DNA of 64,000 bases, taken from the NCBI GenBank assembly GCA_964579435.1, contig CAZOGI010000001.1, positions 157,907 to 221,906 of the forward strand. Reading direction: 5' to 3'. This DNA is from an uncultured Planctomycetales bacterium (GTDB taxonomy: Bacteria; Omnitrophota; Gorgyraeia; Gygaellales; Profunditerraquicolaceae). Positions 42,394 through 64,000 of this stretch are shown here, piece by piece (the stretch's first letter is position 1; every line of letters begins with the position of its first letter). The notes beneath the pieces were generated by a model. It worked only from the letters and a program-made list of their open reading frames with translations, was not told the DNA's origin and ran no database searches. Both the position numbers and the translations under genes were made by a program.

Positions 42394-43200
42394 TCAGCTA
42401 TTTATGGTTCCCGAAGAATTATCCAGACTGAAATCTGGCTTGGGTATTCCTAAAATCTCGCAGGCAAGCTCTTCATACTTTTGAGCGCCTAATGAATCCT
42501 TGTCATACAAAGAGATTGGTTTGCCGTAACTCGGTGCCTCTGTTAATCTTATGTTTCTTGGAATGACTGTTTTATAAACTTTTTCTCTAAAATACCCTCG
42601 CACCTCTTGAATAACTTCTTTGGTAAGATTTGTCCGGAAATCGGCCATAGTTAAAAGGACCCCTTCAATTTCCAGTCCGGGGTTGAGTGTTTCACGAACC
42701 AGCTTGACGGTATTCATCAGCTGCGTCAATCCTTCTAACGCATAATATTCGCACTGAACGGGAATGATAAGCGAGTCTGCCGCACAGAGCGCATTGATCG
42801 TCAGTAACCCCAGCGATGGCGGCGAATCGATGATCACGAAATCGAAATTGTTCTTTTCCTCGACAAGCGAGCGCTTCAGCTTATACTCGCGCCCCAGAGC
42901 TCCGACGAGCTCAACCTCTGCGCCGGTCAGGTCAAGATTTGCCGGCGCCACAAAGAAATTCGGGACCGCGGTTTCAACAACAACCCCCGCCAGCTTCTCC
43001 TCCTCCAAGAGAATATGGTATGTACTCTTCTTTACATCGTGCCGATTAATGCCTGCGCCGCTCGTTGCATTTGCCTGGGGGTCAAGGTCGATCAACAGAA
43101 CCCGCTTTTGCGCGCGCGCCAGATAGGCGGAAAGATTGATTGAAGTTGTCGTTTTCCCTGTTCCACCCTTCTGGTTGCAGATTGAAATTACCTTACCCAT
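42394..43200 (-). CDS. parA: Chromosome partitioning ATPase ParA/Soj
   Basis: ICNQKGGTGKTT deviant Walker A. Note the low GC (about 43%). Confidence 0.85.
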   Translation of the reverse strand: MGKVISICNQKGGTGKTTTSINLSAYLARAQKRVLLIDLDPQANATSGAGINRHDVKKSTYHILLEEEKLAGVVVETAVPNFFVAPANLDLTGAEVELVGALGREYKLKRSLVEEKNNFDFVIIDSPPSLGLLTINALCAADSLIIPVQCEYYALEGLTQLMNTVKLVRETLNPGLEIEGVLLTMADFRTNLTKEVIQEVRGYFREKVYKTVIPRNIRLTEAPSYGKPISLYDKDSLGAQKYEELACEILGIPKPDFSLDNSSGTINS

Positions 43201-43273
43201 TTAATTTCAAATAGTTACAAATTGTTCCACGCGGAACATTTTGATTGCCCTTGATTCTTTATCTATTGTCCTT

Positions 43274-43501
43274 TTATTTTGCCGGCTTGTCAAGTTTTTT
43301 GTCTGCTGCCGGAACTACGCTTACCCTTACCTTGGCTGGCTTTGCCCCCGCCATACCAAATAGCCCTCTTTCTTCCTCGCTAAGCACTTCTATCTTCACT
43401 TGCTTACGCGGGACCTTGAGCGCAACCAGGGCTTTATTAATAGCGTCCTCGAGATTTTTACCCTCAACCTCGATACTTTGAAATTCTTTATGCGGGGACA
43501 T
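43274..43501 (-). CDS. Jag/KhpB N-terminal-domain-only protein (Jag_N, no KH or R3H domains)
   Basis: Internal ATG gives MSPHKEFQSIEVEGKNLEDAINKALVALKVPRKQVKIEVLSEEERGLFGMAGAKPAKVRV, which matches the Jag_N pattern (GKTVEEAI..AL..LGV...V.VEVL.E...GFLG). Sits in the canonical jag position after yidC. Confidence 0.5.
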   Translation of the reverse strand: MSPHKEFQSIEVEGKNLEDAINKALVALKVPRKQVKIEVLSEEERGLFGMAGAKPAKVRVSVVPAADKKLDKPAK

Positions 43502-45023
43502 TCTTGTACACTCTCGCTTGATAAATAAGCATGAGAAGGCTATTCGTGATCCAGTACAAAACAAGTCCGGAGGGAACGCGGTAAAACGCCATTCCAAAAA
43601 TTATCGGCATTAAGAAAAGCATCATCTTCTGCTGTTCATTGGCTCCAGCGGTTTTACTCATGGATATCTTCTGTTGAAAGAACATCGCAAGAGCCATGAG
43701 GATTGGTAATAAATTAATTTCGTTGCCTAAAAGCGGGAGGTGATTGGGCAAAAGCGCAATCCGGTCAGGCTCGGAAAGATCCTTAATCCAGAAAAACTCC
43801 GCACCTTTTAACGCAATAGAGCGAGGAAGCAGTTGAAGGAAGGCAACAAAAACGGGCATTTGCAATAACAGCGGCAAGCAGCCGCCCAAGGGATTGACTT
43901 TATGCTCCCGAAATAACTTCATTTGTTCTTGCTGAAATTTCTGGGGATTATCCTTATACAACTTCCTTAACTCTTCGAGTCGAGGTTGAATCATTTGCAT
44001 CTCTTTCATCGACTTTGTTTGCTTTATGGTCAATGGAAATAGCGCTATAAAAATTGTGCATGAAACGCCAATGATGGCCCATCCCCAGTTATTGAATAAC
44101 CTGTGGAAAAACTCAAGCAATTGAAGCAAAATTTGTGATATAAAATCAAAGGTTCCAAAATGAATAATCGACGCATACTCGGGATCAGCTTCTGAAAGCA
44201 GCTTTATAATCTGTGGGCCGGCAAATAATTTCAAATTTAACGCCTTCTTTTCTCCTGGTTTTAGCTCCATCAACGACTGCGGACTAAACGTCACCACAGA
44301 AACATTTTTATCCGGACGCGAGATTGATCCGTTAATTTTTACTGAATCATCAGATTGGACAATTAAAGCATAATATCTTGTTTTGAAAGCAATGAAGTCA
44401 ACATCTTTAAAGTCTGCCTTCTTTGAAGGAGCATAGGTAGTTGTATTATTTTTTTCCCTACTCACCACAACACTACTATATTGTAAATCGCTTGCCCCCT
44501 GCTTCAAATCAAAACTTCCCAGAACAACTGGAAAATTTACCGTACGAACATTACTTCCAATATTCTCAACTTCAAATTTAAGATTTCCTTGAACACTATT
44601 CTTAAAAGATAGAATCCTTTTAATTCTAAATTCTCTATCTTCACTAACCGAAATAATGGAATTATTAATTAAATTAGATTCACTAATAATAAAATTATTA
44701 TTAAACCCAACTATTTCTAAGGCATTAAATAACAACATGTTACCACCACCAAAAACTTTTCCAAACTTCAACTCAAACAATGACCCGGTTAAGCCATTAA
44801 ATACCGCCTTAAAATGTCCAAAGTTAAATTCCTTTTTGGACATTTCTTTAACATTTTGCAGATCGTTCTTTTTTATTTCTGGCGGGAGGATTTCTTTTGA
44901 AGACAGCGGCTCTTGTTCAGATCGCAGAAGGAGCGGGGACGGCTGTTGCTTTGGCAAAACGGACGACCAAATAAACAATACCACCGCTGACAAGAAAATA
45001 GCCAAAATCAGTCTTTTTTCCAT
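43488..45023 (-). CDS. yidC: Membrane protein insertase YidC
   Basis: N-terminal TM, large periplasmic domain and C-terminal five-TM core (MPIIFGMAFYRVPSGLVLYWITNSLL). The periplasmic-domain coding region is extremely AT-rich (about 25-35% GC). Confidence 0.85.
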   Translation of the reverse strand: MEKRLILAIFLSAVVLFIWSSVLPKQQPSPLLLRSEQEPLSSKEILPPEIKKNDLQNVKEMSKKEFNFGHFKAVFNGLTGSLFELKFGKVFGGGNMLLFNALEIVGFNNNFIISESNLINNSIISVSEDREFRIKRILSFKNSVQGNLKFEVENIGSNVRTVNFPVVLGSFDLKQGASDLQYSSVVVSREKNNTTTYAPSKKADFKDVDFIAFKTRYYALIVQSDDSVKINGSISRPDKNVSVVTFSPQSLMELKPGEKKALNLKLFAGPQIIKLLSEADPEYASIIHFGTFDFISQILLQLLEFFHRLFNNWGWAIIGVSCTIFIALFPLTIKQTKSMKEMQMIQPRLEELRKLYKDNPQKFQQEQMKLFREHKVNPLGGCLPLLLQMPVFVAFLQLLPRSIALKGAEFFWIKDLSEPDRIALLPNHLPLLGNEINLLPILMALAMFFQQKISMSKTAGANEQQKMMLFLMPIIFGMAFYRVPSGLVLYWITNSLLMLIYQARVYKNVPA

Positions 45024-45039
45024 TGTTTGCCTTTATGCG

Positions 45040-45255
45040 CTAATGAGGCGGATCATAGAGTGGGCCGCGGGTAAAAGGATGGCACCGCAAAATGCGCCGG
45101 CAGGCTTTTAAGCCGCCACACCAAAAACCCCACCGGGAAATCGATTCCTTCGCATACTCCGAACAACTGGGGATATAACGACAGCTGGGCGGCAGGAGCC
45201 CGCGGAAAAACCGCTGATACGTCGCAAGGAACAAAAGCGCTATCCGTCGGCCCAT
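45040..45255 (-). CDS. yidD: Membrane protein insertion efficiency factor YidD
   Basis: YQRFF...CRYIPSCSEYA motif, 71 aa. Confidence 0.8.
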   Translation of the reverse strand: MGRRIALLFLATYQRFFRGLLPPSCRYIPSCSEYAKESISRWGFWCGGLKACRRILRCHPFTRGPLYDPPH

Positions 45256-45393
45256 TTAAGCCGCCAGGCGCTTTCTGCCCTTTTTCCGACGACGGGCGAT
45301 CAATTGCCTCCCGGTGCGCGTGCTCATCCTCGCCCGAAAACCATGCTTGCGTTTTGCGACGATCTTGGTCGGCGTCTTCAGATTTTTTTTCAT
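45256..45393 (-). CDS. rpmH: 50S ribosomal protein L34
   Basis: Own translation: [45 protein letters not shown] (45 aa). The HGFRARM core is diagnostic. Not in the ORF track (below 60 aa); the overlapping track ORF 45053-45418 is a wrong-frame artefact. Confidence 0.8.
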
Positions 45394-45419
45394 TTTGCTC
45401 TCCCTCGGTAAGTGGCAAC

Positions 45420-45688
45420 TCCGTCGAATTGGGATAAATTATAACACATTGTTATCTCAAGTCAACACTAAATGTTTCGACTCTAGAAAAATCTGCAAAG
45501 CAAAACCCCGATGGGATTTTCTCGGGCGGCGCAAAACACAGAAGGGACTGTCGTTTCAATTTTATGTTGACTTCCCGAAAAGGGGCTGTATAATAATCAA
45601 ACGATTTTAAAATACCTGTCCTTTTTAGCCTGACAAAATCTTTCCACAGAGTTATTCAGTTTGTTGATAAACTGTGGATTCTGTGCAC
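45420..45688. other. Putative oriC segment with dnaA promoter region: AT-rich stretch with degenerate DnaA boxes
   Basis: AT-rich 45425-45500 (gggataaattataacacattgttatctcaagtcaacactaaatg). Near-consensus DnaA boxes (TTATCCACA/TGTGGATAA): ttgttgataa (1 mismatch), tgtggattc, ctttccaca, tgggataaa, ttatctcaa. TATAAT at about 45590. The gene strand switch occurs here. Confidence 0.45.
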
Positions 45689-47038
45689 ATGAACACACAA
45701 GACCTTTCTCTTATATGGAATACCGTCCGGGATACGCTGCGGGAAAAGCTCGGCGAGACGGTCTTTGAAACCTGGATAGCGCCCCTCCAGTGCAAAAACC
45801 AGTCGAAAGAGACGGTAACCATTGAAGCCCCCGATATATTTTTCTGCGAATGGATAGAGAAACACTACAAACTTGCTCTTTCACAAGCCTTCGGAAGCGT
45901 CACCAAAAGCCAACCTTCGGTCCTCCTGGAGGTAAGCGGGCAGACGCCACGACCGACCATCCCAGCGCCGGAAACCGCGCCGGCACCTCCAGAGAGCGCC
46001 TTCGAGCCGCATGAACGCGCCGGGCTGAACCCCCGCTATACATTCGACAATTTCGTGATCGGACCTTCCAACCGCCATGCACACGCCTATTCCCTCGCCG
46101 TCGCCGAATCCCCGGCAAAGTCGTACAACCCCCTTTTCATCTACGGGGGAGTGGGGTTGGGCAAAACGCACCTGATGCAGGCGATCTGCCACCACATCCG
46201 GCAAAAAAACGGGCCGCAGACAAAGATCTGCTATACCTCATCGGAAAAATTCATGAATGAGTTGATTTTGGCGATCAAGGACCGCTCGACGCACGAGTTC
46301 CGGCAAAAGTATCGCGGCCTTGACGTGCTCGTGATCGACGACGTACATTTCTTTGCCGGCCGGGAGGCAACCCAGGAAGAGTTCTTTCACACCTTCAACG
46401 CGCTCTACGACGAACACAAACAGATCATCATGTCTTCCGACCGTCCACCCCGGGAAATCGCCAACTTACAGGATCGCCTGGTATCTCGTTTCGGTTGGGG
46501 GCTGGCCACGGATATCCAGCCGCCCGACATGGAAACGCGCGTGGCGATACTCAAGAAAAAGATCGAGCGCGAACCCGTCCAGGTCCCCGACGATGTTTTG
46601 TTCTTTATCGCTCAACTTATCCGCACCAATATCCGCGAACTGGAAGGTGCCCTGGTCCGTACGATCGCGTATGCGCTGCTCGAAGAAGAGCCGATCACGC
46701 TGGGGTTGGCAAAACATGTTTTAAAGGATCTCCTCAAAGAACCCAAAAAATTGATCACTGTCGACTTTATTCAACGCTGTGTCGCCGAAGAATTCGGGAT
46801 ATCTCTCTACGACCTCAAAACGAAGCGCCGCACCCGCACCATTGTATTGCCGCGACAGATCGCCATGTATTTGAGCCGGGAGTTGACCGATTTATCTTTT
46901 CCGGAAATTGGCGGTTTTTTTGGGGGGAAAGACCATACGACGGTTTTGCATGCGTGTAACAAAATCAAGGAAGTGGTACGTACGGATGAGGTTTTACAAA
47001 GGCAAATTGAACACATTATCACGGTTATTAAACAATGA
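45689..47038 (+). CDS. dnaA: Chromosomal replication initiator DnaA
   Basis: Walker A GGVGLGKTHL, box VII, C-terminal HTH (DHTTVLHA). The ATG at 45689 (MNTQDLSLIWN) is preferred over the GTG at 45674. Confidence 0.9.
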   Translation: MNTQDLSLIWNTVRDTLREKLGETVFETWIAPLQCKNQSKETVTIEAPDIFFCEWIEKHYKLALSQAFGSVTKSQPSVLLEVSGQTPRPTIPAPETAPAPPESAFEPHERAGLNPRYTFDNFVIGPSNRHAHAYSLAVAESPAKSYNPLFIYGGVGLGKTHLMQAICHHIRQKNGPQTKICYTSSEKFMNELILAIKDRSTHEFRQKYRGLDVLVIDDVHFFAGREATQEEFFHTFNALYDEHKQIIMSSDRPPREIANLQDRLVSRFGWGLATDIQPPDMETRVAILKKKIEREPVQVPDDVLFFIAQLIRTNIRELEGALVRTIAYALLEEEPITLGLAKHVLKDLLKEPKKLITVDFIQRCVAEEFGISLYDLKTKRRTRTIVLPRQIAMYLSRELTDLSFPEIGGFFGGKDHTTVLHACNKIKEVVRTDEVLQRQIEHIITVIKQ

Positions 47039-47185
47039 TTGCAGGGGGTATACACAGTCCTTTTTTGTGGTAACTTTTTTAATAGGTGTGAGATCGGAGG
47101 TTTTAAACAGGAATGTAACCGCATTACTATAATACGATTACTATTTTTTTAAAATTACTTATTAATAGTAGAAAAGGAGTGGTTG

Positions 47186-48277
47186 ATGAAAATTAAGGCG
47201 AACAAAGAACAATTACTAACCGGAATTCAAACGGTATTAAATGTCATCAGTCCAAAATCTGCTTTACCAATTCTTTCTAATATACTCTTGGAGACGCAAA
47301 CCGATACACTGCGTTTAACCGCCACAGATCTTGATATTGGTATAAGCTGTGAAATAGCGGTGAATAACCAGGAGTCAGGGTCAATAACCGTTCCGGCCAA
47401 GCGATTTTATGAAATTATCCGGGAGTTGCCTGCGGATGAGGCAGTTATTACCTCGAAAAAGAATAATCAGGTCCATATAGAAACGACGACCTGTCAATTT
47501 AAAATTATGGGCCTGGCGCGGGAAGAATTCCCCCGACTCCCGGAATTTAAAGACCGCAATGTTGTTTCTTTGGATCAGGATTTAATGAAACACATGCTTC
47601 ACCTGACCGCTTTTGCCGTATCAAACGATGAGTCGCGGTATATCCTCAATGGGATCTTGGTGCAACTTTCAAAAAACACCGTGAGTATGGTGGCAACCGA
47701 CGGAAAGCGGCTGGCGGTGATTGAGCAAAAGACAAAGAAGGGGAGCGAAAAACCCATTTCTTTTATCGTTCCCAGCAAAACCATTCAGGAGCTCAACCGT
47801 AATTTGGGTGACACCGGGGAGGTATCGTTTATTTTGGGGAACAACCAGGTGCTGTTCGACCTGGGCAAGGTGATCATTATTTCCCGCCTCATAGAAGGGG
47901 AATTCCCCGATTATAAACAGGTTATGCCGCCGGCATCGGAGCAGAAGATTAAGGTGGATCGCGAGGCGCTTCTCTTGGCGGTACGCCGCGCGGCGCTCTT
48001 GTCGACGGTCGATTACCAGGCGGTGAAGTGGGAGGTGTTCAAGAATAAACTGGTTATTTCCAAGTCGACCCCGGATATCGGGGAGTCGCGGGAAGAGTTG
48101 GCCGTCGACTATGCCGGGAAGGAGATGATCATCGGTTTTAATCCGAATTATCTGACCGATGTTTTGAAGAATCTGCAGCATCAACTCGTCGAATTCGAGG
48201 TGACGGACAGCGAAAAACCGGGCGTGGTGCGGACCGACGGGTATACGTATATCGTTCTACCGATGCGTCTCGGATAG
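47186..48277 (+). CDS. dnaN: DNA polymerase III beta sliding clamp
   Basis: MKIKANKEQLL...; three-domain clamp length. AGGAG at -9. The ATG at 47186 follows the track's TTG. Confidence 0.9.
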   Translation: MKIKANKEQLLTGIQTVLNVISPKSALPILSNILLETQTDTLRLTATDLDIGISCEIAVNNQESGSITVPAKRFYEIIRELPADEAVITSKKNNQVHIETTTCQFKIMGLAREEFPRLPEFKDRNVVSLDQDLMKHMLHLTAFAVSNDESRYILNGILVQLSKNTVSMVATDGKRLAVIEQKTKKGSEKPISFIVPSKTIQELNRNLGDTGEVSFILGNNQVLFDLGKVIIISRLIEGEFPDYKQVMPPASEQKIKVDREALLLAVRRAALLSTVDYQAVKWEVFKNKLVISKSTPDIGESREELAVDYAGKEMIIGFNPNYLTDVLKNLQHQLVEFEVTDSEKPGVVRTDGYTYIVLPMRLG

Positions 48278-48285
48278 GGCGTCGC

Positions 48286-51025
<2,740 letters not shown>

Positions 51026-53466: not shown

Positions 53467-53541
53467 GTCCCCATCGTCTAGCCTGGTCTAGGACAAGAGC
53501 TTTTCAAGCTCTCGACCGGGGTTCAAATCCCCGTGGGGACA
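53467..53541 (+). tRNA. tRNA-Glu (anticodon TTC), no CCA encoded
   Basis: Manual fold: acceptor GTCCCCA/TGGGGAC, anticodon stem AGAGC/GCTCT with loop TTTTCAA, T-loop GGTTCAAATCC. Confidence 0.8.
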
Positions 53542-53590
53542 GGAATTGTTTTGCCGCCGGCCCGGCATTCTGGCCAAGAAAGGTGTTGGC

Positions 53591-55429
53591 GTGTGCGGAA
53601 TAATCGGATATAGCGGGAAACGCCCTGCTCAGCCGATACTCCTCAGCGGGCTGAAGCGGCTTGAATACCGCGGGTACGATTCAAGCGGCATGGCGCTGGT
53701 GACGCCGCTGCCGGCGCCGCACATCTGCATGCGCAAGGCCGCAGGTAAAATCGCCGCACTGGAAGAGGCGCTGCACAAAAAACCGCTCCACGGCACCGCC
53801 GGGATAGCCCACACCCGCTGGGCAACCCACGGTGCGCCGACGTACGCCAACGCCCATCCCCACGCCGATTGTTCCGGATCCCTCGCCCTGGTCCATAACG
53901 GCATCATCGAGAATCACGAAGAGCTGAAGGCGCGCCTGATCAAGGCCGGGCACCGTTTCACCAGCCAGACCGATACGGAAGTGATCGCGCATCTCATCGA
54001 ATCGTTCTACGCTCCCCGGGTCTGCCTCGCCGAGGCGGTACGCAAGGCAAGCCTGCTTTTGCACGGGTCGTTTGCCCTGGGGGTTATCTCGGCGCGCGAG
54101 CCCGGGGTTATCGTCGGGATGCGTGCGGGCAGTCCGTTGATCGTCGGCGTCGGCAAGGGGGAGAATTTTATCGCCTCCGACGTGCCGGCGGTGTTAGAGG
54201 CGACGCGGGAGATTATTTTTCTGGAAGAGAACGAATCGGTGGTCTTGACGGCTCAGGAGATCCGCATCTGCGAGCGCACGGGCAAACCGCTGCGTAAGCG
54301 CACGACCCGGATCGACTGGAACAGCGCGCAGGCCCAGAAGGGCGGGTACCGCCATTTCATGCTCAAGGAGATAAACGAGCAGCCCCGGATCCTTTCCGAT
54401 CTCATTCGCCTGCATTGCGCAAAACGCGGCGTTGTCTTTGAGCGGCTCAATATCGCCGAGTCGCGCTTGCGCTCGATCCGCTCAATTGCCATCGTTGCCT
54501 GCGGCACGGCGTATCATGCGGGTGTCGTCGGGAAGTATGCCCTCGAGTCGCTCTGTCGGCTGCCGACGGCGGTCGATGTATCGAGCGAGTTCCGCTATCG
54601 AACGCTCCTGATTGGCCCGCAGACACTCGTCCTGGCGGTCTCCCAGTCGGGAGAAACGGCTGATACGCTGGCGGGGGTCAGGGAGGCCAAGCGGCTCGGG
54701 GCGCCGGTTGTCGCCATCTGTAACGTCCTGGGCTCGACCCTGACGCGCGAAGCCGACGGGGTAATTTATACTCACGCCGGCCCCGAGATCGGCGTCGCAT
54801 CGACGAAGGCCTATACCGCTCAGCTTGTCGCGTTTTATCTGTTCACGCTCTACCTGGCGCACCTGCGCGGCGGCATGCGCGCTTCCCGGATGGCGCTGCT
54901 TTTGCAGAAGCTCCGGCAGATACCGGAGCTGCAGCGGCACATCCTTAAGGATCAGGAGCGCATCGCCCGCCTGGCGCGCAGCCATTCGCACTTCGGGTCA
55001 TTCCTTTTCCTGGGGCGCAACATCAATTTCCCCTCTGCCCTCGAGGGCGCCCTGAAGCTTAAGGAGATATCCTACATCCCCGCGGAAGGGTATGCGGCCG
55101 GGGAGATGAAGCACGGGCCGATCGCGCTGATTGACGAATACCGTGCCGTTGTCTGCATTGCCCCCGCAGCAGAAACGTACGAAAAGATGATCTCCAATAT
55201 CCAGGAAATTCGCAGCCGTAAAGGCAAGATCATTGCCATTGCCACTGCCCGCGACACGGCGATCACCGCCCTTACCGAGGAGATCATTTCCCTCCCCGCA
55301 ACCGAAGAGCTTTTTTCGCCGCTGCTGGTGGCGCTTCCGCTGCAGCTGTTGGCGTACCATATCGCCGTGAAGCGCGGCTGCGATGTCGACCAGCCGCGTA
55401 ATCTTGCCAAGTCAGTTACCGTCGAATAA
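53591..55429 (+). CDS. glmS: Glutamine--fructose-6-phosphate aminotransferase
   Basis: GTG start directly followed by the catalytic Cys (MCGIIGY). Two SIS domains. C-terminal ...AKSVTVE. Confidence 0.9.
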   Translation: MCGIIGYSGKRPAQPILLSGLKRLEYRGYDSSGMALVTPLPAPHICMRKAAGKIAALEEALHKKPLHGTAGIAHTRWATHGAPTYANAHPHADCSGSLALVHNGIIENHEELKARLIKAGHRFTSQTDTEVIAHLIESFYAPRVCLAEAVRKASLLLHGSFALGVISAREPGVIVGMRAGSPLIVGVGKGENFIASDVPAVLEATREIIFLEENESVVLTAQEIRICERTGKPLRKRTTRIDWNSAQAQKGGYRHFMLKEINEQPRILSDLIRLHCAKRGVVFERLNIAESRLRSIRSIAIVACGTAYHAGVVGKYALESLCRLPTAVDVSSEFRYRTLLIGPQTLVLAVSQSGETADTLAGVREAKRLGAPVVAICNVLGSTLTREADGVIYTHAGPEIGVASTKAYTAQLVAFYLFTLYLAHLRGGMRASRMALLLQKLRQIPELQRHILKDQERIARLARSHSHFGSFLFLGRNINFPSALEGALKLKEISYIPAEGYAAGEMKHGPIALIDEYRAVVCIAPAAETYEKMISNIQEIRSRKGKIIAIATARDTAITALTEEIISLPATEELFSPLLVALPLQLLAYHIAVKRGCDVDQPRNLAKSVTVE

Positions 55430-55440
55430 GGCCCGTCGAG

Positions 55441-56097
55441 ATGCTGTATATCGTCTCCACCCCCATAGGCAACCTGAAGGATCTTTCCCTGCGCGCGCAG
55501 TCGGTTTTGCGAGCGGTGTTCCTGATCGCCTGTGAGGATACCCGCCACAGCCGGATCCTGCTGGAGGAATACGGTATCACGACGCCGACGACGAGTTATT
55601 TTCAGCACAACCGTTTCTCCAAGGGCGCGTATCTGCTGGATCTCTTAAAAGGGGGGAAGGATATCGCCCTGATCGCAGACGCCGGTACCCCGGGGATTCT
55701 CGATCCCGGATACCATCTGATCAATCTGGCGATCGACGCAGGCATTCCGGTAACGGCGATCCCCGGGCCGGTGGCATTGATCTGCGCGCTCGTGCTCTCC
55801 GGAAAACCGGCGCACCGTTTCTTGTTTGAAGGGTTCCTGCCGGTCAAGCAGGCAGCGCGGCGCAACCGGCTGATCGCGCTCAAAGGCATGGATACCACCA
55901 TCGTCTGTTACGAATCCTGCCACCGGATCCTCAAGACCCTCGATGACCTGGCGGCGGTATTTCCCGACCGCACGCTCGTCCTCTGCCGCGAGCTCACCAA
56001 GAAGTTCGAGGAAGTGCTGCGCGCAAAACCGCAGGAACTTTCCCGCCTCCTTCGGGAACGGCCGCGCCCCAAGGGAGAGTTTGTTCTGGTCATTTAA
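55441..56097 (+). CDS. rsmI: 16S rRNA (cytidine1402-2'-O)-methyltransferase
   Basis: MLYIVSTPIGNLKDLSLRA..CEDTRHS...TPGISDPG-like tetrapyrrole-methylase fold motifs. 218 aa (short form). Confidence 0.8.
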   Translation: MLYIVSTPIGNLKDLSLRAQSVLRAVFLIACEDTRHSRILLEEYGITTPTTSYFQHNRFSKGAYLLDLLKGGKDIALIADAGTPGILDPGYHLINLAIDAGIPVTAIPGPVALICALVLSGKPAHRFLFEGFLPVKQAARRNRLIALKGMDTTIVCYESCHRILKTLDDLAAVFPDRTLVLCRELTKKFEEVLRAKPQELSRLLRERPRPKGEFVLVI

Positions 56098-56290
56098 GCG
56101 CCAGAAACCGTTTTCGTTTTGCCGCCGTCGAGCCCTTGCATTTGCGCCTTCCCCGAGATACATTTTAAGTGCCATTTATACGGGTTGTTTTAGACAATGA
56201 TTCCTTCCGGCGTGGAGGGCGCCGGAGGGGGAGCCGGTTTGTGCCGGATCTGCCTTATGCAAAGGGTCAGGTCCGGCTTTCTTTTTGCCT

Positions 56291-59200
56291 ATGCACACGA
56301 CCAGCGTGAAAAAGACAGCAACGTTCATCCTCGCAGGTATCCTGCTCTTTGCGCACTCCCTTGGTCCGCGCGCGCTCGAAGCGGCTGCTCTGTCTCCTGT
56401 GAGCGCCGAAACTGCCTGGTTGCCTCCAGGGAATGCCAGCGCCTCTTTGCGGGGACTTTCGTATGAGCAAGGGCAAAACTGCTTCCGTCTCCTGTTCGAG
56501 CGCGCCGCGATCGCGGGCATCGGCCCCGCTGAACTGGATTCCCTGACACGCCGGTTTCTGAATTATTTTTTCATCGCCCTGGCGCTTCCCGAAGAGTCGT
56601 TCTGGGTGAATCTGCGGCCGGATAAACCCGACGGCATTATCGATCCCGCGCTTGCGCAGACAGCGGTCGGCGCCATTCTCCTGGAGACCGACCTGTTGCT
56701 TAAACAGGATACTGCCCGCGCCACCGCGCCGGATACGGCATCGGGGAGGCTGTATTGGGAAAAGCTCTATCGCAAGGCGCAGGAGTTGTATGGTTCGGCG
56801 CAGGTCAGTATCCCCACGCTGTGCCGCCCTTGGATCGTGCCGGAGGAGATCGTCATGCGCATGACGGCGGGCAACGCGTACGTGTACAAGGCGACTTTGA
56901 AGGTGATGCTGGAGGAGGATTATATACAAGACACAAGTCACCTGTCACCAGACACCGGTGTGATGAGGCAGTATGCGTTCGCGGATGAGCGGGCGAAAGA
57001 GTTGAATGAGTACGCCGCACAACTGATGCGCGAACTGGTCGTGCCGGAGCTGACGCGCAAGGTGAACAACGGACGGGAGTACGCCGCCCTGCGGCAGGTC
57101 TATCAGGCGCTGATTCTGGCGCAGTGGTTCAAGCGGACGGTCCGTTCTGGCGGCGCGTTCGCGCCGCTGGTCAACGGCGGGGCCCCTTCGTCGTTGCGGC
57201 TGCGGTCGCCGCCGGATGTGCGCGGGTACTTCCGTGCGTACCAGCGGCTCGTCCGGCAGGGTGCGTATGATATGCGGGCCGGCGGTTATGCCGGGGGGGA
57301 GCGAGTGGCGCGCCGCTATTTTTCCGGGGGCATTGTCCTGCGCGCCGGACCCGCGATCGACGCGGGAGGCTTTTCCGGCACCAGCGCAACTTTTCCTCCC
57401 GCAGGAACCGCCGCCTTGACCGTCGAAGTGGAAGCGAGTATGTCCGCGCGGGAGGTCGGGCAACCGCAACGCATCGTTGCCGCTGTTGTCCAGCCGCAGG
57501 CCGATGCGGGGATAGCCAGCGACCACCATGCCGGCACGACGCGCGCGCAGCACCTGGCATTTCATCGCGGCGGAGATTTTGCCACGGTTTTGCGCTGGAT
57601 CGCACAAGAAGATCTGGGTCTGGTTGCCGGCAGCGACGGGTGGTTCGATCTGCGCCGGCGGTTACAGGAGGAGCCCCAGAGGCGCCTCGTTTTTGACGGT
57701 CTTGATCGGCGCGGGCAGAAACGGCATACCGAGCTGCGCCTGGAATCTGACGGCGCGCTGGTAGTGGTAGACAGCCGCCTGCGCAAGGACCATGCCGGGA
57801 GAGGCCAATTTGCAGTCTATGCGCGCAACGAAGGCAAGGTGGTGCATGAGCTCTCGGAGCTGCGGTCATGGGCGGCATATGCCCGGGATGAGCTGGGGAT
57901 CATCACTGCTGCCGAGATCAGGGACGGGAAGCTGGGGATACGGCTGCGCCGCTGGATGAACGGACTGGGCGAAGACGAAGCACGGGATTTTTCCGTCGGG
58001 TCGTTTGAGATCAGCCGCAGACAAAAGCGGATCCGGGAAAAAGCCGATACGTTCCATCGCGACGCGCTTATCGAAGAGTTCGTCTTTTGGGCAAAACGGC
58101 AGAGATTACTGGGCACGGCCCAGACGGCATGGGAGCAGCTCCAAGAGGTCTGCGCGCAGGCGGGCACGCGGCCGCAGGAGCTGTTCCGCAGGTACCGCGC
58201 GCAGGAAGGGGTTTTCGAAATCTCGCCCCTCATGCAGGCGCTCTTAACACAGACGGACTTGGCGAAGTACAACTTTTTCGGCCTCCTTTTTGTCACCCGC
58301 CAAAATCTGCTGTCGCCGCTTGCGGTGCGCATCGCCGCGAAAATGAGCACCTATCCTTTGGTCTATGATCCCGACGGGCTCATCGATATTGAGGTGCGCC
58401 TCGTGGAGTATCTGCGCGCGGCTTTGGCGGCAAACCAGGAGCTGTTGGGGCCAGAGGGGGTGCGGGAGTGTCTTGCCACCGCCGCTCCCGTGCTGAGCGG
58501 ATTCTATCCGCACATGCATCAGCATCCGCTGGCTTGGGTAAGCCGGTATACCCAGGCCGAAATGCGTATCCGCGTGCTGCTGGCGGTGCGTTCTCTTGAG
58601 GATCTGATTACGGACGGGCGGCTTCCCGAGGAGCTGATCGCTTATCTGCAGGAGATCGGCTCGCTTGATCCGCTCATCGCCTTGGCCGACGAAAAGCTCC
58701 TCGCCGATTTTGGGATGTCCCTCCCGGTCCGCATGCGCGCGTTGCGTCAGGAGTATCCGGATTTCGTGCGGCGGTACCGGCAGCGGCAGGCGCTGCTTCC
58801 GGAGCCGGAAGAGGCAGAGGAGGAATTTGATTTCATCATCGCTTCCTCTGGAGGCGCGCCGGAGGGGGAAGCCGCAGCATCAGCCGCTGCGCTGCGCAGC
58901 ATCCTTGCGCCGCATCTGCTGGTGCCCGTTGACCTGGAGTTGGTCCTGCAGGCTGTCGAGCGCTCTCCTCGCCGAGAGGCTGCGCTTCAGGCGGTCACCG
59001 TTCTGTGCCGGGAGTTCGTGCGCAATAAGGTTACCCCGATAGACAGCGCGTTGCTCTTGCGCAGCTGCGCCAAATCTTCCTCGTTGAGCGAGGCGGCGCG
59101 GCTCTTTGCCCAGCACCAGCGGTACCTGCGCGTACTGCGGCTGGACCCGCAGCAGCAGCCGGCGATCGTGCGCGCGATCGCCCTTTCGGCGCAACCGGCC

Positions 59201-61489
59201 GAAGCGGCCCGGCGCGCACTGGGGTTTATGGCCGGCAACGCCGGATGGCTGCGCGAGCACAGTCGTCAGCTGCCCTTTGAAACGGTCCGCCTCCTGTTTT
59301 CGGGGACGCTGCAGGAACCGCTTCCGGCATTCGTTTGCGCGACCGCGCCGGTCGGCCATTTGGCGGAGCGCGGCGCACTGGCGGTGCAGCTCAATACCCT
59401 GCCCCGCGCCGTTACGGAATACATCATCGCCTATCTGCAAACCGTCCCGCCGGAAAAACAGTTTTCCTCTGTGCGCGGAATTAAAGAGATGGTGCGCAAC
59501 GGCGGCATGCTTCCCGAGGATACCCTGCAGGACTGGGAGCTGCTCTTGAACCGCTATATTGCGGATTTCGCCTTCCTTGCCTGCCGGCCGCTGATCCTCC
59601 TGCAGCGGCGGCTCTTTCGCGCCGAAGCCTTGCCCGAAGATGGGCTGCTCTCGATCGCTGCGACGGGAGAGGAGGGGGTTGCCCTCCTGGCCGCCCGGGT
59701 TGCGGCGATTAAAGAGGAGCTGTTCCTGCGCAGACAGATCCGCGAGCAGGACCTGCGACATCCGGCTTTTAAGGCGCTTGTTGCCTGGATAACCGGGTTT
59801 TCCAGCGCCAGTTGGGGCCACGGTAAGAACGAAGGGATGGAGTTGGATTATTTCCTTGAGCGGTTCAGGGCCACCGCGGCTCCTCCCCTTGATGCCGCGT
59901 TAACACAGGCGCCGCCTTCGTCTTTCAGCGTCCGCCCGGAAAGGATCGAGTTTACCGAGGATGAACGGCAGATGTATTCCCGCTATCAGCGTATTTTCTC
60001 TCGGGCGCTCTTGTTGTACCATCAGGCCGGATCCGCCGAAGCGACTCTTATCGTTCTGAAAGAGGAGGCGCGCAAAGAGCTCCTGCGGGCAACACGGGAG
60101 CTTGAGCGCTCACGCAAAGAGAGAGGGGCCGGCGCCGTTCTGGAGCATCTGGCCCGCCGGCAGCGGGCCTTCGAGCGCGCGCAGGCTGGCGTCGCCGCGG
60201 CCGCGACCCTCGAATCGTTCTGCTGGGAGATCGTCTCCGGCGTGCCCGAGGTTCTGGAGCACAGTCCGCTCCTGCAGGAACAGGTGATCGTCGCGCTCCT
60301 GCAGGAGGCTTTCCGTCAGGATCCCGCAGCCCTGGAGCGCATTGCCGAGATCGAGCAGGAAGAGCTCAGTATGCGTTCGCTTGACAAGATCCTTGCCTTC
60401 AAAAACGACTATTTCAATAAGATCGAACCGCCCAACTCGATCTTAAACGAACGGCCGCCCCAGGAGGCCAAGCAGATACTGCGGGTCTTTCGCGTGTCGA
60501 TTTTCGAACAGGTGTATGCGCGCACCAAAACCGTCTCACCGCCCGAAGAGGAGCCGTTGGTGCTGCGCGGATTTCTCACCCGGGATATCCTGGGTGAGCT
60601 GGCCGGGGACATCGGCGACGCCTGCTATACGGCGTTGCCGCACATCATGAATTACCCGGCGATGGTCGGAGCGCTCATCTTCACGACCGGGCAAGGGCTG
60701 GATGCGCGTTTTGCCGGGTCGGTCCTTGTCCTGAAGAATTCCGTTGCGGGAAAGCCGGTGTGGATCCTGCGCGGCATCAATCCGCAGGAAGATGTCGTCG
60801 CCGATTACAGCGCCGCGGATTTCCTGGACGGGGTTCTGCGCACCTGCGTGGAGCTGGCGCAGGCGTATAATGCCGCCCGCCCGCCGCAGGAGCAGGTACA
60901 CCGGATCCTGACCCCGGCTCTCGACGAAGGAGCTCTCAGCAATCAGCGCAAGATCAATTCCGTCGTCAAACAGCGGATTGGGCGCAGCCGGGCAGTTATT
61001 CTCGACCACAAAGAGACGTTTAATTTTCACGACATCACCGCTGCCTGTAAAGAATTGGCGACGATCGTCCCTGCTGCCCCGGAGGCGCGTGCGCAGGTCC
61101 CGGGGCCGCTCGTTGCGCAGTCGATTGCCTCATCCCCCGCGCCGGCGCCTCAAGGGCCTGAGACGCAGGTGGGGGGGATAGATCTTCGTTCATTGCCGAT
61201 GTTATCTGAGACGGGCTGGACGGCTGCGCCTGTTCCGGGGCGGGGAGGCGTAGATCTGGAACAGGAGTGGCGGCGTCTGCACCACCTGCTTTCTGCGGGG
61301 ATCGCGCCCTCCGCGCGCAGGATAGCGGATTGTGCCGCCGCCTGCAGCCGCAGCCCGGCGTTTCGCCAGGAATTCAGAGAGCGTCTTCTCGGCTGTATCA
61401 GTCAGACCTTGCTCATCCAGGAGCGGCGCGGGTGCGCTACCGAACCGCTCCTGCAGCGGGCGCTGATCCTTCTGGACAACGCCGAGTGA
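56291..61489 (+). CDS. Giant (about 1730 aa) signal-peptide protein of unknown function, mostly alpha-helical (Ala/Leu/Arg/Glu-rich); paralog A
   Basis: A single uninterrupted ORF. The ATG at 56291 (MHTTSVKKTATFILAGILLFAHSLGPRALEAAA) follows the track's TTG and gives a signal-peptide-like N-terminus. I recognise no catalytic motif. The N-terminal 250 aa are homologous to the next gene. Confidence 0.6.
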   Translation: MHTTSVKKTATFILAGILLFAHSLGPRALEAAALSPVSAETAWLPPGNASASLRGLSYEQGQNCFRLLFERAAIAGIGPAELDSLTRRFLNYFFIALALPEESFWVNLRPDKPDGIIDPALAQTAVGAILLETDLLLKQDTARATAPDTASGRLYWEKLYRKAQELYGSAQVSIPTLCRPWIVPEEIVMRMTAGNAYVYKATLKVMLEEDYIQDTSHLSPDTGVMRQYAFADERAKELNEYAAQLMRELVVPELTRKVNNGREYAALRQVYQALILAQWFKRTVRSGGAFAPLVNGGAPSSLRLRSPPDVRGYFRAYQRLVRQGAYDMRAGGYAGGERVARRYFSGGIVLRAGPAIDAGGFSGTSATFPPAGTAALTVEVEASMSAREVGQPQRIVAAVVQPQADAGIASDHHAGTTRAQHLAFHRGGDFATVLRWIAQEDLGLVAGSDGWFDLRRRLQEEPQRRLVFDGLDRRGQKRHTELRLESDGALVVVDSRLRKDHAGRGQFAVYARNEGKVVHELSELRSWAAYARDELGIITAAEIRDGKLGIRLRRWMNGLGEDEARDFSVGSFEISRRQKRIREKADTFHRDALIEEFVFWAKRQRLLGTAQTAWEQLQEVCAQAGTRPQELFRRYRAQEGVFEISPLMQALLTQTDLAKYNFFGLLFVTRQNLLSPLAVRIAAKMSTYPLVYDPDGLIDIEVRLVEYLRAALAANQELLGPEGVRECLATAAPVLSGFYPHMHQHPLAWVSRYTQAEMRIRVLLAVRSLEDLITDGRLPEELIAYLQEIGSLDPLIALADEKLLADFGMSLPVRMRALRQEYPDFVRRYRQRQALLPEPEEAEEEFDFIIASSGGAPEGEAAASAAALRSILAPHLLVPVDLELVLQAVERSPRREAALQAVTVLCREFVRNKVTPIDSALLLRSCAKSSSLSEAARLFAQHQRYLRVLRLDPQQQPAIVRAIALSAQPAEAARRALGFMAGNAGWLREHSRQLPFETVRLLFSGTLQEPLPAFVCATAPVGHLAERGALAVQLNTLPRAVTEYIIAYLQTVPPEKQFSSVRGIKEMVRNGGMLPEDTLQDWELLLNRYIADFAFLACRPLILLQRRLFRAEALPEDGLLSIAATGEEGVALLAARVAAIKEELFLRRQIREQDLRHPAFKALVAWITGFSSASWGHGKNEGMELDYFLERFRATAAPPLDAALTQAPPSSFSVRPERIEFTEDERQMYSRYQRIFSRALLLYHQAGSAEATLIVLKEEARKELLRATRELERSRKERGAGAVLEHLARRQRAFERAQAGVAAAATLESFCWEIVSGVPEVLEHSPLLQEQVIVALLQEAFRQDPAALERIAEIEQEELSMRSLDKILAFKNDYFNKIEPPNSILNERPPQEAKQILRVFRVSIFEQVYARTKTVSPPEEEPLVLRGFLTRDILGELAGDIGDACYTALPHIMNYPAMVGALIFTTGQGLDARFAGSVLVLKNSVAGKPVWILRGINPQEDVVADYSAADFLDGVLRTCVELAQAYNAARPPQEQVHRILTPALDEGALSNQRKINSVVKQRIGRSRAVILDHKETFNFHDITAACKELATIVPAAPEARAQVPGPLVAQSIASSPAPAPQGPETQVGGIDLRSLPMLSETGWTAAPVPGRGGVDLEQEWRRLHHLLSAGIAPSARRIADCAAACSRSPAFRQEFRERLLGCISQTLLIQERRGCATEPLLQRALILLDNAE

Positions 61490-61645
61490 GCCTGCTTTGG
61501 AGCAAGCGCTTTCCGTAAAACCCGCCCCGCGTCTTGTATCACTTCTCCCAACGGCTATATTTATTATTGGCTGATAACCACCTTTTTCCGGAACGCTGCG
61601 CCTGCGCTGATTTGGTACGGCTGTTTCGGGATACGTCCTTTCCTT

Positions 61646-64000
61646 ATGGCTCGAAAAGCAATCTGTCTAGGGCTCTGCTGTATCCTGCTCCTGCAGCAAT
61701 CCGGGTTTACGCAAGCTGTGGCGCCGGCAAAGGCACCGGTGTTGCCGTTGCCGTCGAGCGCCTCGGGGGAACGGTTCAGGCCTGCGCACCTGCGGTCTCT
61801 GGGCTATGATGAGCGCCAAACGCACCTGGAGCTTATCGTTGACCGGGGAGATCAGAAACAGCCGGGCTCATCCGAAGCAACAGAAACGACCCGCCGCCTT
61901 CTTTCATTTTTCCTCATCGGCATCAGCCTGCCCGAGAGATCCTTCTGGGTGAACCTGCGTCCCGATACCCCGCAAGAGATCATTGATCCGCTTCTGGCCC
62001 AGACCGACGTCGGCAAGATCATGCTGGAGGCGGACCTGCAGCTCAAAAAAGATACGGCAGCCGCGACCTCTCCACAGACCCCGGGGGGGAAGGCGTATTG
62101 GGATAAACTGTACCGCAGGGCAGAAGAGCTTTTCGGCGGCAGCCGGATGTCCTTTCCCACTCTCTCTCGGCCCTGGATTGTCCCGGGGGAGATCATTGTG
62201 CGCGAGACTTCCCGGAACGCATACGTCTATAAAGCGACGCTGAAGGTGATGCTGGAGGAGGATTATATACGAGACACAAGTCACCTGTCACCGGACACCA
62301 GTGTGATGAGGCAGTATGCGTTCGCGGATGAGCGGCTCAGGCAGCTCAATGCCTACGCCGCGCAGCTGATGCGCGAGCTGATTATTCCGGAGCTGACGCG
62401 CAAAGTCAATACCGAGCGTTCGTATGCCCCGCTTCGCCAGGTGTATTATGCGCTGATCCTGGCGCAATGGTTTAAGCGGCGCTTCCGCGGCGCCGGCGGC
62501 CTTTACGCGGAAAGGATCGACAGCGCCGATCTGCTCGGTTTGCGCTCAGCGCAGACTGCCGACGTTCAGGAGTACTATAGGCGGTATCAACAATCGTTCC
62601 GGGACGGGGAATATCGTTTGCAGGCCCCTGCCTATTCGCTGTCCGGAAAAAGCGTGCGCCACTATTTTTCCGGGGGCATTCAGCCGCTCCCGTCCCAACT
62701 GCCGGCGCCCGGAAAATCCGAAACGCTTCCGGGCGGGGGGCTTTATTCCTCGGTTGATGCCAGCGCCCACAGGCGCTTGCCGCAGGACCCTGATCGCGGC
62801 CTGCGTTTTAGCGTCGGGGTGAGTCAAGCGCTGGCTCCTGTTCCGGGCCTGGAGCCGTCGGTTCCCGCAGCGGTCCCCGGGGCGCTGCTTGTCACCGCCG
62901 GGAGCACATACGCCCCAACGGCTTCTCCTCAAGAGAATGCGGAGGCGCTTGTGCGGCTGTTCCTGGGGATCGGTGCCGGCGAGGACCTCGCCGCAGCCCT
63001 CGAAGCGCAGTTTAAGGCCGATCCCACCGAGCTCCTCAACGCCGCGCGTGAAATGCAAGCGGCGCGCGCACTGCCATCTCTTTTTCAGGGCCGCAGGCAT
63101 TTCATCTCTTCGTTCTTTGCGGAAAACGACGCCGCAGGTGCCGCGGGCAAAGAGGTGCTGCAGGCGGCCGCCGAACGCCTTTTTGTTTTTCTTGTCGAAC
63201 ACATAGCCCAAGAAGATCATCAGCCGCCGGCTCCCGAAGCATCCCCAGAGGCGCTGATCCGCGCCGGCAACAAGGTGGTTCTTGAAGACGGAAGCAGCGT
63301 CCTCATAACCCACGCGATCAGCGTCGGCGAATCTCGCCCCGGGGAGCAGTCGCAAGACGGTCGCACTACGCGGCCTCAGGCGCACGCCTTCGGCGCCGAA
63401 GGCGTTTTTTACGGTCTCTACGTGCGCGACCGCGGCACCCGAACGATTTATCTGGATCGCGCCGGCCTTGCCGAACGCTTGCAGGATCCGCACCAGCGAC
63501 GGGCTTTTGCCCGCGTCCTGGGAAGGGAGTCATTCAGCATCGAAGATGCGGCGCGTTTCCTTGACGGACACGAGACGTTCCATGCCCTGGTTGATGAACT
63601 GCGTCTGCGGGAAGAGTTGCCCGAGATGAGCCAGGAGCAGGAGGAGGCATTGGCGGACCTGTTCGGCAGGGATTTTGCTTTCGGCGAGGTGACGCTGGAT
63701 ATTCGCCTGCAATCCTTGCTGACGAAGATGAGCAGGCTGCTGCGGGTGGATGTCGCGCGGGTGCTGCGCAAGAGAGGAACGATCGAAGAGGCGCTCGGCT
63801 ATCTGGGCATCTTTGTTTCCCTGGAGTGGTCGGTCTCCGGCAGCGAGCTTGCCCGCCTTGCCCGGGCGCCTGCGCCGGCGGGAGAGCGGCTGGTACGGCC
63901 TTTCCTGGTGACCGAGCGTACGGCCCTGACCCCTACGCCTAACCGCCGCGATAACGCTTTTGAAGACATGATCGCCCGCTCCAGCTCGCGTTCGCGCGCG
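61646..64000 (+). CDS. Partial CDS (runs off the window end): second large signal-peptide protein; paralog B of 56291-61489
   Basis: Own translation from ATG at 61646 (MARKAICLGLCCILLLQQSGFTQAVAPAKAP...) remains open for 785 codons to the window end. Shares the conserved domain ...FWVNLRPD..IIDP.LAQT..G.I.LE.DL.LK.DTA.AT.P.T..G..YW.KLYR.A.EL.G......PTL.RPWIVP.EI......NAYVYKATLKVMLEEDYI.DTSHLSPDT.VMRQYAFADER... with paralog A. Not in the ORF track because there is no stop within the window. Confidence 0.55.
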   Translation, partial: MARKAICLGLCCILLLQQSGFTQAVAPAKAPVLPLPSSASGERFRPAHLRSLGYDERQTHLELIVDRGDQKQPGSSEATETTRRLLSFFLIGISLPERSFWVNLRPDTPQEIIDPLLAQTDVGKIMLEADLQLKKDTAAATSPQTPGGKAYWDKLYRRAEELFGGSRMSFPTLSRPWIVPGEIIVRETSRNAYVYKATLKVMLEEDYIRDTSHLSPDTSVMRQYAFADERLRQLNAYAAQLMRELIIPELTRKVNTERSYAPLRQVYYALILAQWFKRRFRGAGGLYAERIDSADLLGLRSAQTADVQEYYRRYQQSFRDGEYRLQAPAYSLSGKSVRHYFSGGIQPLPSQLPAPGKSETLPGGGLYSSVDASAHRRLPQDPDRGLRFSVGVSQALAPVPGLEPSVPAAVPGALLVTAGSTYAPTASPQENAEALVRLFLGIGAGEDLAAALEAQFKADPTELLNAAREMQAARALPSLFQGRRHFISSFFAENDAAGAAGKEVLQAAAERLFVFLVEHIAQEDHQPPAPEASPEALIRAGNKVVLEDGSSVLITHAISVGESRPGEQSQDGRTTRPQAHAFGAEGVFYGLYVRDRGTRTIYLDRAGLAERLQDPHQRRAFARVLGRESFSIEDAARFLDGHETFHALVDELRLREELPEMSQEQEEALADLFGRDFAFGEVTLDIRLQSLLTKMSRLLRVDVARVLRKRGTIEEALGYLGIFVSLEWSVSGSELARLARAPAPAGERLVRPFLVTERTALTPTPNRRDNAFEDMIARSSSRSRA

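Follow-up and report, generated by a model that had tools for sequence, protein, structure and literature searches.

Two giant genes that follow each other directly downstream of a block of housekeeping genes raise the question which kind of protein they encode and what such proteins may do. The genes, here termed A and B, lie on contig CAZOGI010000001.1 of the NCBI GenBank assembly GCA_964579435.1, which stems from an uncultured bacterium labelled Planctomycetales and assigned by its GTDB lineage to the Omnitrophota (Gorgyraeia; Gygaellales; Profunditerraquicolaceae). The whole stretch of DNA analysed, referred to as the window, comprises 64,000 nucleotides (positions 157,907 to 221,906 of the forward strand), and all coordinates below are those of the window. 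The original prediction, made from the letters of the window, had described a tandem pair of secreted paralogs with a shared N-terminal domain and divergent C-termini, and had likened them to polymorphic effector, adhesin or toxin cassettes, with a novel cell-envelope or S-layer-like scaffold family as the alternative. This description of the observation is correct, far beyond chance, and the interpretation as a whole is partly supported. Here, we define a family by the order of signal peptide, N-domain, variable centre and C-domain, for which there is no earlier name, and we propose, at slightly less than even odds (a probability of about 0.45), that A, B and their relatives are exported and carry exchangeable enzymes as cargo for use at the interface with a host or prey.

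Gene A (56291..61489, plus strand) is a complete family member of 1732 amino acids (aa), both ends of which match family domains in the translated open reading frame (ORF); its start codon is the ATG at 56291, with a TTG at 56285 as an alternative. Gene B (61646..64000, plus strand) runs into the window edge, and its translation comprises the first 785 of 3905 codons. The two consecutive plus-strand frames contain all motifs that had been quoted for them, and the gene noted as open to the edge could be recovered in full: a HMMER search with the N-domain of B retrieved P0122, a protein of 3905 aa, which is taken as full-length B because its residues 1-785 are identical to the window ORF. The end of gene B thus extrapolates to ~73363 in window coordinates. 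A BLASTP comparison aligns A33-394 with B24-384 (368 aa) at 53% identity (E 5e-111) and finds nothing similar outside this N-terminal match, in agreement with the tandem paralogs described earlier, whose N-terminal module is conserved and whose downstream parts are unrelated. Neither A nor the window part of B yields a single match in Pfam-A, NCBIfam or the sequences of the PDB.

The genes might be spurious long frames in GC-rich DNA or products of misassembly. Indeed, long shadow ORFs are common in this region of 62% GC, the GC content is patchy elsewhere in the window, and in a Logan assembly of the same organism a contig stops exactly where gene A starts. Yet, A reads through 1732 codons without interruption, with family domains matched at its two ends in the right order and frame, modules of the centre have homologues at the protein level, and AlphaFold2 (AF2) folds three separate regions confidently. 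Moreover, both proteins are intact in the NCBI assembly, where A and B share one contig of 241,497 bp with a third family member (P0010, 2659 aa). Homology, intact copies and confident folding all speak against the assembly artefact for which the original prediction had allowed, and we consider such an origin practically negligible.

The first conserved element is the N-domain, an alpha+beta module that spans aa ~50-347 of A (56438..57331, plus strand; delimited by family match) and aa ~42-346 of B (61769..62683, plus strand; delimited by BLASTP and family alignment). Alignment A1, which includes 49 members, contains 62 invariant columns over the ~300 aa of this domain. The shared, homologous N-terminal region of the original prediction therefore stands; its extent, given as roughly 250 aa, has to be revised to a folded domain of ~300 aa plus a signal peptide. 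Likewise, the string R.YFSGGI, which had been placed in a linker rich in Gly, Ala, Pro and Tyr, is in A1 the invariant last hairpin of the N-domain (R306/Y308/G311/G312). The domain is modelled confidently by AF2 and has no fold relative in the PDB; the A1 profile matched only coiled-coil noise among PDB sequences, and this in the centre. The domain, in which the original prediction had recognised no known one, is not recognised by Pfam, NCBIfam or PDB comparison either, and judging from the model it apparently represents a new fold. The N-domains of A and B are 55% identical in amino acids and 60% in nucleotides, with third codon positions near saturation, and that of B is closer to proteins of other genomes (62-65%) than to A. 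The nucleotide identity and the near-saturated third positions rule out a recent duplication or gene conversion; by sequence comparison, A and B are old paralogs.

The N-domain is preceded by a signal peptide, the consensus of which in the 49-member alignment reads MKKKxxKIxSLLLCFLLIF(E/Q)Q(S/T)GFAQVA. Of 228 members, 170 carry the motif [FL][EQ]Q.G[FL].[QE] with its end near aa 26, and Lys at -15 and -12 as well as Cys at -5 are conserved. By inspection, A and B both start with a basic n-region and a hydrophobic core of 12-13 residues followed by small residues, in line with the signal-peptide character previously ascribed to them. In B (61646..61717, plus strand) a motif match identifies the family signal peptide (…CCILLLQQSGFTQA), the motif region being LLLQQSGFTQA. 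In A the N-terminus (aa 1-33, MHTTSVKKTATFILAGILLFAHSLGPRALEAAA; 56291..56389, plus strand) has diverged from the family motif in its c-region (FAHSLGPRALEAAA), and overall still resembles a signal peptide. The family core is short (median 19-residue Kyte-Doolittle score 1.65), and Gly at -3 and Ala at -1 are compatible with a cut by signal peptidase I after GFA. Owing to the n-h-c layout and the -3/-1 rule, a family-specific signal peptide of the Sec type, cleaved after …GFA, is predicted. Three other signal types were considered and rejected: a lipoprotein signal, as there is no lipobox and the conserved Cys lies in the middle of the core, next to a Leu at -1; a Tat signal, as there is no twin-arginine (RR) motif; and a prepilin-type signal, as the hydrophobic stretch lies before G-F and not after it.

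The second conserved element is found at the opposite end. A C-terminal unit of ~105 aa consists of the motif GGIDFRxLP, a variable spacer and a helical segment (…EWxxIxxMxxAGIxPSxxRIKEY…CIADILRxEEE…). In A the unit opens with GGIDLRSLP at aa 1628 (61172..61198, plus strand), and its helices (aa ~1656-1730; 61256..61480, plus strand) are modelled as a four-helix bundle with a predicted local distance difference test score (pLDDT) of ~90 in AF2; full-length B ends with GGIDLRALP…. The C-domain occupies the extreme C-terminus in 120 of the 120 best hits and is present in 198 of 236 family sequences after a jackhmmer search, the other 38 of which look like fragments from contig ends. Each complete protein has a single GGIDF motif, located 100-140 aa before its C-terminus. 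The ‘divergent C-termini’ of the original prediction thus give way to a second conserved domain in every complete member; the divergence is central. Neither Pfam (2025) nor NCBIfam (June 2026) holds a model for the N-domain, the C-domain or the first centre module of A (see below). A disulfide or zinc site was rejected as a hallmark of the C-domain, the cysteines not being universal. In 83 of the 198 members a motif [S/A/G]SP[V/I/A/L] stands 5-20 aa before GGIDFR (in A, IASSPAP at aa ~1610), in a region that AF2 models as disordered; it may serve as a processing or recognition site.

How do two conserved ends coexist with unrelated interiors? Pairwise identities of N-domains and C-domains are correlated across 197 complete members (Spearman 0.57 versus a maximum of 0.15 in 300 permutations). 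In many pairs, such as P0059/P0101, P0007/P0008 and P0016/P0100, the N-domains are 90-94% and the C-domains 70-90% identical, and the centres lack detectable similarity; in these pairs, similarity ends shortly after FSGG and returns 0-35 residues before GGIDF. Because near-identical ends flank unrelated centres, comparison of the relatives shows that the centre is exchanged as a cassette between conserved, co-inherited ends.

The same pattern is apparent at corresponding chromosomal sites. In five other genomes (loci L001, L003, L005, L012 and L025), a family member likewise comes after glmS and/or an rsmI-like gene; there, GlmS is 61-74% and the RsmI-like protein 60-63% identical to those of the window. 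Compared with A, B or one another, the positional counterparts beyond these anchors are alike at the two ends only. For instance, the proteins of L005 and L012 are 74% identical over the N-terminal 380 aa (signal peptide and N-domain) and 90% over the last 50 aa, and their centres are unrelated. Apart from the glmS/rsmI synteny, clustering the neighbours of 30 loci retrieved only unrelated Rnf/Nqr-like genes. An apparent decayed family member was observed at L012 (6816-8652), between glmS and the intact family gene: its first ~216 aa (signal peptide and start of the N-domain) are 84% identical to the intact neighbour, and a partial C-domain follows ~1 kb further on. This remnant suggests gene birth and death inside the arrays.

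Conserved ends around variable cargo in tandem genes, together with the M23 or SLT-like lytic domains carried by some members, are reminiscent of classical polymorphic toxin systems of the contact-dependent inhibition (CDI), Rhs or multifunctional autoprocessing repeats-in-toxin (MARTX) type, where a C-terminal toxin is paired with a cognate immunity gene. The polymorphic toxin concept was reportedly set out by Zhang et al. in 2012. The resemblance extends to delivery-type ends, recombination-swapped cargo and tandem paralogs, and MARTX proteins also have conserved N- and C-terminal regions that surround variable effector domains. However, in the present family the variable part is internal and the extreme C-terminus is conserved, which leaves no variable toxin tip. 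Pfam and NCBIfam searches of A and the window part of B, and a Pfam search of full-length B, produced no match to two-partner secretion (TPS), PAAR, LXG or RHS domains, RTX repeats or a cysteine protease domain (CPD; no Peptidase_C80), and thus no known trafficking domain. Furthermore, the 156-bp gap between A and B contains no plausible ORF of the size of an immunity gene, and no small neighbour recurs among the 30 loci. The proteins bear a Sec signal instead of signals for type I, V, VI or VII secretion systems (T1SS, T5SS, T6SS, T7SS), which is incompatible with MARTX proteins as T1SS substrates; their cargo consists of regulatory and metabolic enzymes rather than nucleases, deaminases or ADP-ribosyltransferases; and PADLOC reported nothing meaningful, merely a weak match to a kinase region. 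A system of this kind is therefore very improbable. The cassette behaviour anticipated by the original prediction is borne out by the unrelated centres between N-domains of 90-94% identity. Its toxin, adhesin or autotransporter reading is not, as the C-domain is helical, known trafficking or toxin domains are lacking, and the gap from A to B has no ORF of the size of an immunity gene.

Other export systems share single features with the family. Autotransporters and two-partner secretion (T5SS) differ from it in that the C-domain forms four helices and no beta-barrel, with no TPS match in Pfam and no conserved partner gene. Cargo of the type IX secretion system (T9SS) resembles it in carrying a small conserved C-terminal domain behind variable functional domains; yet, the C-domain is helical and not a beta-sandwich, and no match of the Por_Secre_tail type was found in Pfam or NCBIfam. 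An unusually conserved signal peptide on very long exported proteins is likewise known from the extended signal peptide region (ESPR) of autotransporters and TpsA proteins and from the YSIRK-G/S and KxYKxGKxW types, but none of these is related to the motif …LLCFLLIF[EQ]Q[ST]GFAQ, and the family lacks a sortase-type motif followed by a transmembrane (TM) segment and a basic tail.

The family is large. A search with A retrieved more than 371 proteins, which are 970-3020 aa long and with few exceptions match only the first ~20% of A, at 40-51% identity. Over the N-domain, A and its hits are 41-53% identical, with E values down to 1e-100. The organism names among these matches are Candidatus Omnitrophota/Omnitrophica, or else merely ‘bacterium’. 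An exhaustive HMMER search with the N-domain of B yielded 7,335 cluster representatives at E<=1e-3 and 5,019 at E<=1e-30; as each represents a cluster at 50% identity, the expansion that had been proposed for checking amounts to at least 7,335 clusters. The N-domain is single-copy in every one of the 7,335 representatives and starts at aa ~46-60. A scan of GTDB species genomes identified 30 loci, 28 of them in metagenome-assembled genomes (MAGs) of Omnitrophota and two in bins labelled Planctomycetales and Methanosarcinales. Several of these loci share a genome (six in one MAG), with copy numbers per genome being lower bounds, and family members often stand in tandem arrays of two or three. 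Judged by nearly all named sources of the sequences, the family is found almost only in the Omnitrophota. Its proteins have been deposited as hypothetical or named for an internal domain, and the family motif strings were not found in this context in the papers that were searched.

Some sequences fall outside the MAGs assigned to the Omnitrophota. At L001, on a contig of a Planctomycetales MAG, the rsmI-like gene adjoins the family gene and a glmS fragment lies ~8.6 kb upstream; mis-binning is likely, since the adjacency of rsmI-like gene and family gene matches the window. At L023 a family gene is located on a contig of a ‘Methanosarcinales archaeon’ MAG. This binning is noteworthy in that V. 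archaeovorus reportedly preys on Methanothrix, so that predator and prey would be expected to co-occur. Finally, two near-identical, viral-classed contigs from IMG/VR (L032 and L033) harbour an ORF (4743-9515, plus strand) for a distant relative of 1590 aa. Among eight neighbouring ORFs, PHROG matches only a radical-SAM gene and one ORF that matches two families of unknown function, and Pfam matches none. The relative suggests that the superfamily is wider or that a mobile element carries such genes.

Which functions are placed between the conserved ends? In A the first centre module (aa 402-600; 57494..58090, plus strand) is characterised by the invariant motifs H..FH, D-G, DHAGRG and HEL.E. 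It is also present in P0003 (two copies), P0004, P0005 and P0121 at 39-45% identity, and its profile matches nothing in PDB or Pfam; on its motifs, it is a candidate for a new metal-dependent enzyme domain. The second module (aa 934-1604; 59090..61102, plus strand) is rich in Ala, Leu, Arg and Glu and is shared with two family members, P0001 (32% identity over 686 aa, BLASTP) and P0002 (30% over 583 aa). It includes a divergent domain of the GNAT alpha/beta fold (aa ~1420-1595; 60548..61075, plus strand), which recurs in P0006 and P0011 and has no Pfam GNAT match at E<=1. According to the model, this domain resembles the GNAT superfamily in fold and differs from it in that the pyrophosphate-binding signature is unrecognisable: in place of the acetyl-CoA motif A (Q/R-x-x-G-x-G/A), a conserved LR(G/A)(I/V)NP is found, with the loop of A, ILRGINPQE, being conserved among four homologues.

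B carries a different set. Its window part contains a module (aa 581-727; 63386..63826, plus strand) with an HExxH motif (HETFH, aa 642-646), which is 43% identical to aa 1690-1841 of P0010, including a conserved RFLDGHETxHA, and for which Pfam gives nothing. Beyond the window, Pfam identifies Peptidase_M48, ABC1, HEAT_2 and Acetyltransf_1, followed by the C-domain. Word-indexed homologue searches, the index of which was swamped by low-information words, yielded none for B aa 369-785 and a single match for the centre of A. Across the family, precomputed Pfam assignments comprise HATPase_c, methyltransferases, FHA combined with a metallophosphatase, GGDEF, DnaJ, NDK with CheR, radical SAM with B12-binding, NUDIX, PPDK_N, HAD, ABC1, M48, M23, GNAT, TPR/HEAT and sugar-nucleotide enzymes; where the source gave no name for an accession, the domain is presumably the one named here.

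With respect to membrane topology, A has no TM-like segment past its signal peptide, and the lone strongly hydrophobic segment of B after the signal is located at aa 3153-3171. The members with GGDEF, DnaJ, NDK or FHA plus metallophosphatase domains, and most of those with radical SAM domains, have no segment above a Kyte-Doolittle score of 1.8 past the signal peptide.

The repertoire of the centres bears on another possible role, that of a surface coat, S-layer or adhesin, in which the ends would attach the protein to a lattice or to the envelope and the centre would form a variable surface for antigenic or host-range variation. The signal peptide, the attachment-like conserved terminal domains, the variable, partly helical and Ala/Leu-rich centre of A and the tandem arrays all fit this notion, and the giant proteins of V. 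archaeovorus have been suggested to act as a ‘coat’ (PMC10066038). Nevertheless, the centres bear kinase, GNAT, peptidase, GGDEF and radical SAM domains and not immunoglobulin-like, cadherin or beta-helix repeats; Pfam found no SLH, S-layer or adhesin match in A, the window part of B or full-length B; and a regular lattice is unlikely in view of many paralogs per genome with unrelated centres. Overall, a coat function appears improbable.

We favour the interpretation that the family consists of exported carriers, which would operate in four steps. The proteins would leave the cytoplasm by Sec export, the signal being cut after …GFA. The N- and C-domain would then act as common handling modules for one shared envelope, export or delivery apparatus, as the ends are invariant and co-inherited. 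The centre would constitute the cargo, replaced by recombination between the conserved ends as seen on comparing relatives: in A a His-rich module, a helical region and the divergent GNAT-fold domain, and in B the HExxH module, followed outside the window by M48 peptidase, ABC1 kinase, HEAT and GNAT domains. GGDEF, J-domain, NDK, FHA-phosphatase and radical SAM domains require GTP, ATP, S-adenosylmethionine (SAM), acetyl-CoA or Hsp70, which are available only in a cytoplasm, and kinase and GNAT domains likewise need cytoplasmic cofactors. Since such cofactor-dependent domains follow a signal peptide without a stop-transfer helix, the cargo may act at or inside another cell, a host or prey. Omnitrophota have been inferred to be predators or parasites (PMC10066038), and RNA of the predator V. 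archaeovorus has been seen inside dead prey cells (PMC13153191); the export-carrier model fits both this presumed lifestyle and the predator RNA in prey.

Several points weigh against this proposal. Cofactor-dependent cargo is equally compatible with a location inside the producer, the signal peptide of A deviates from the family motif, and export of the family proteins is read from sequence alone. Also, the neighbours at the 30 loci include no conserved gene for secretion, a chaperone or immunity. Last but not least, ~21% of the members possess one or more hydrophobic segments after the N-domain, often at aa 370-480, with inconsistent parity; as the parity varies, the C-domain would not always come to lie on the same side of the membrane.

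These hydrophobic segments, which would put the cargo of the respective members into the cytoplasm, lead to the question whether the proteins remain with their producer, as envelope-tethered multi-enzyme or signalling scaffolds, a small format of the Omnitrophota giants without delivery to other cells. The N-terminal hydrophobic segment and the N-domain would serve as an anchor at the inner membrane or in the periplasm, and the cargo would be used for envelope synthesis and signalling. The producer's cytoplasm suits cofactor-dependent domains, B features the strong hydrophobic segment at aa 3153-3171, the chromosomal site beside glmS/rsmI is stable, and the giant ‘multi-enzyme’ proteins, with which the family shares its Pfam repertoire, have been described as anchored in the membrane. 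On the other hand, most members, including A and the carriers of GGDEF, DnaJ and NDK, lack any hydrophobic segment besides the short signal-type core, and translocation of everything downstream is predicted because basic residues precede this core. Rapid replacement of the whole centre, moreover, is atypical of housekeeping scaffolds and typical of genes involved in conflict or interaction. Retention at the producer's own envelope is the main rival interpretation and, on balance, less likely than export. A more specific version of the carrier interpretation, namely, that the signal peptide, the N-domain and the C-domain are the recognition and translocation elements of an Omnitrophota-specific delivery route into prey or host, is rather doubtful. 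If it were true, this route would be new, and kinases, acetyltransferases, cyclases, J-domains and peptidases would be the cargo that leaves ultra-small cells; the family would represent a new class of secretion substrates, and the N-domain a new fold for translocation or attachment.

The closest known counterparts are the giant multi-enzyme proteins of the Omnitrophota, termed ‘Archaeovorins’ (West-Roberts et al. 2023, bioRxiv 10.1101/2023.11.21.568195; Nielsen & Lui 2026, bioRxiv 10.64898/2026.06.07.730766). They occur in the same phylum, carry an N-terminal signal peptide and poorly conserved centres, are presumed to play a role towards host or prey and have the same domain repertoire as the family (bioRxiv 10.1101/2023.11.21.568195), a mosaic of HATPase_c, methyltransferase, GNAT, HAD, NUDIX, GGDEF, radical SAM, PPDK_N, HEAT/TPR and peptidase domains. 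In contrast to A and B, with 1.7 and 3.9 thousand aa (kaa) and one TM-like segment in B, these giants exceed 10-30 kaa and possess tens of TM helices; their SecA-like and C39 domains have no Pfam match in A or B, and the giant-protein papers, which are concerned with proteins above 10-20 kaa, describe no conserved frame of N-domain and C-domain. The family is thus best described as phylum-specific, recombining and presumably exported multi-domain proteins with two previously undescribed conserved domains.

Omnitrophota are widespread, uncultured and ultra-small bacteria thought to be predators or parasites. A signal peptide, an N-domain and a C-domain that are invariant across thousands of members provide a handle on their mode of host attack and on the function of the enormous, poorly conserved proteins in this phylum, and the swapped centres represent a catalogue of candidate effector activities. 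Defining both conserved domains and the centre modules would allow the annotation of thousands of giant proteins that are currently ‘hypothetical’.

The genomic context of A and B is that of a housekeeping block, as had been noted. It comprises yidC (on the minus strand), dnaA, dnaN, gyrB, gyrA, tRNA-Glu, glmS and a TP_methylase-family gene, the last two supported by Pfam matches, and the cumulative GC skew has its minimum near 46 kb of the window. The glmS and TP_methylase-family (RsmI-like) genes (53546..56097, plus strand), which form the conserved syntenic anchor, lie directly upstream of A. A scan for promoters and terminators around the genes was uninformative. The GC content falls patchily within housekeeping genes (42000-51000), compared with ~0.61 elsewhere: to 0.34-0.43 in yidC (43500-45000), 0.37 at the start of dnaN (47000-47500) and 0.42 in gyrB (50000-50500). 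Possible causes of these patches are a chimeric consensus of the metagenome, recombination with relatives of low GC content and the composition of the origin region.

An independent short-read assembly of the same organism, the 4.5-kb Logan contig SRR12133403_179674 (L031), contains identical genes for the end of gyrA, glmS and the methylase and terminates just 5' of gene A (contig end at window ~56230). The cluster of A also holds 40-aa fragments from contig ends, and the conserved family ends probably break short-read assemblies at family genes. Among RNA genes, the window encodes a cluster of tRNA-Val/Leu/Cys (38482-38804, minus strand), the above-mentioned tRNA-Glu (53467-53541, plus strand) and a 6S/SsrS RNA (27179-27340, minus strand), which scores 61.4 bits in Rfam at a gathering score of 46.4.

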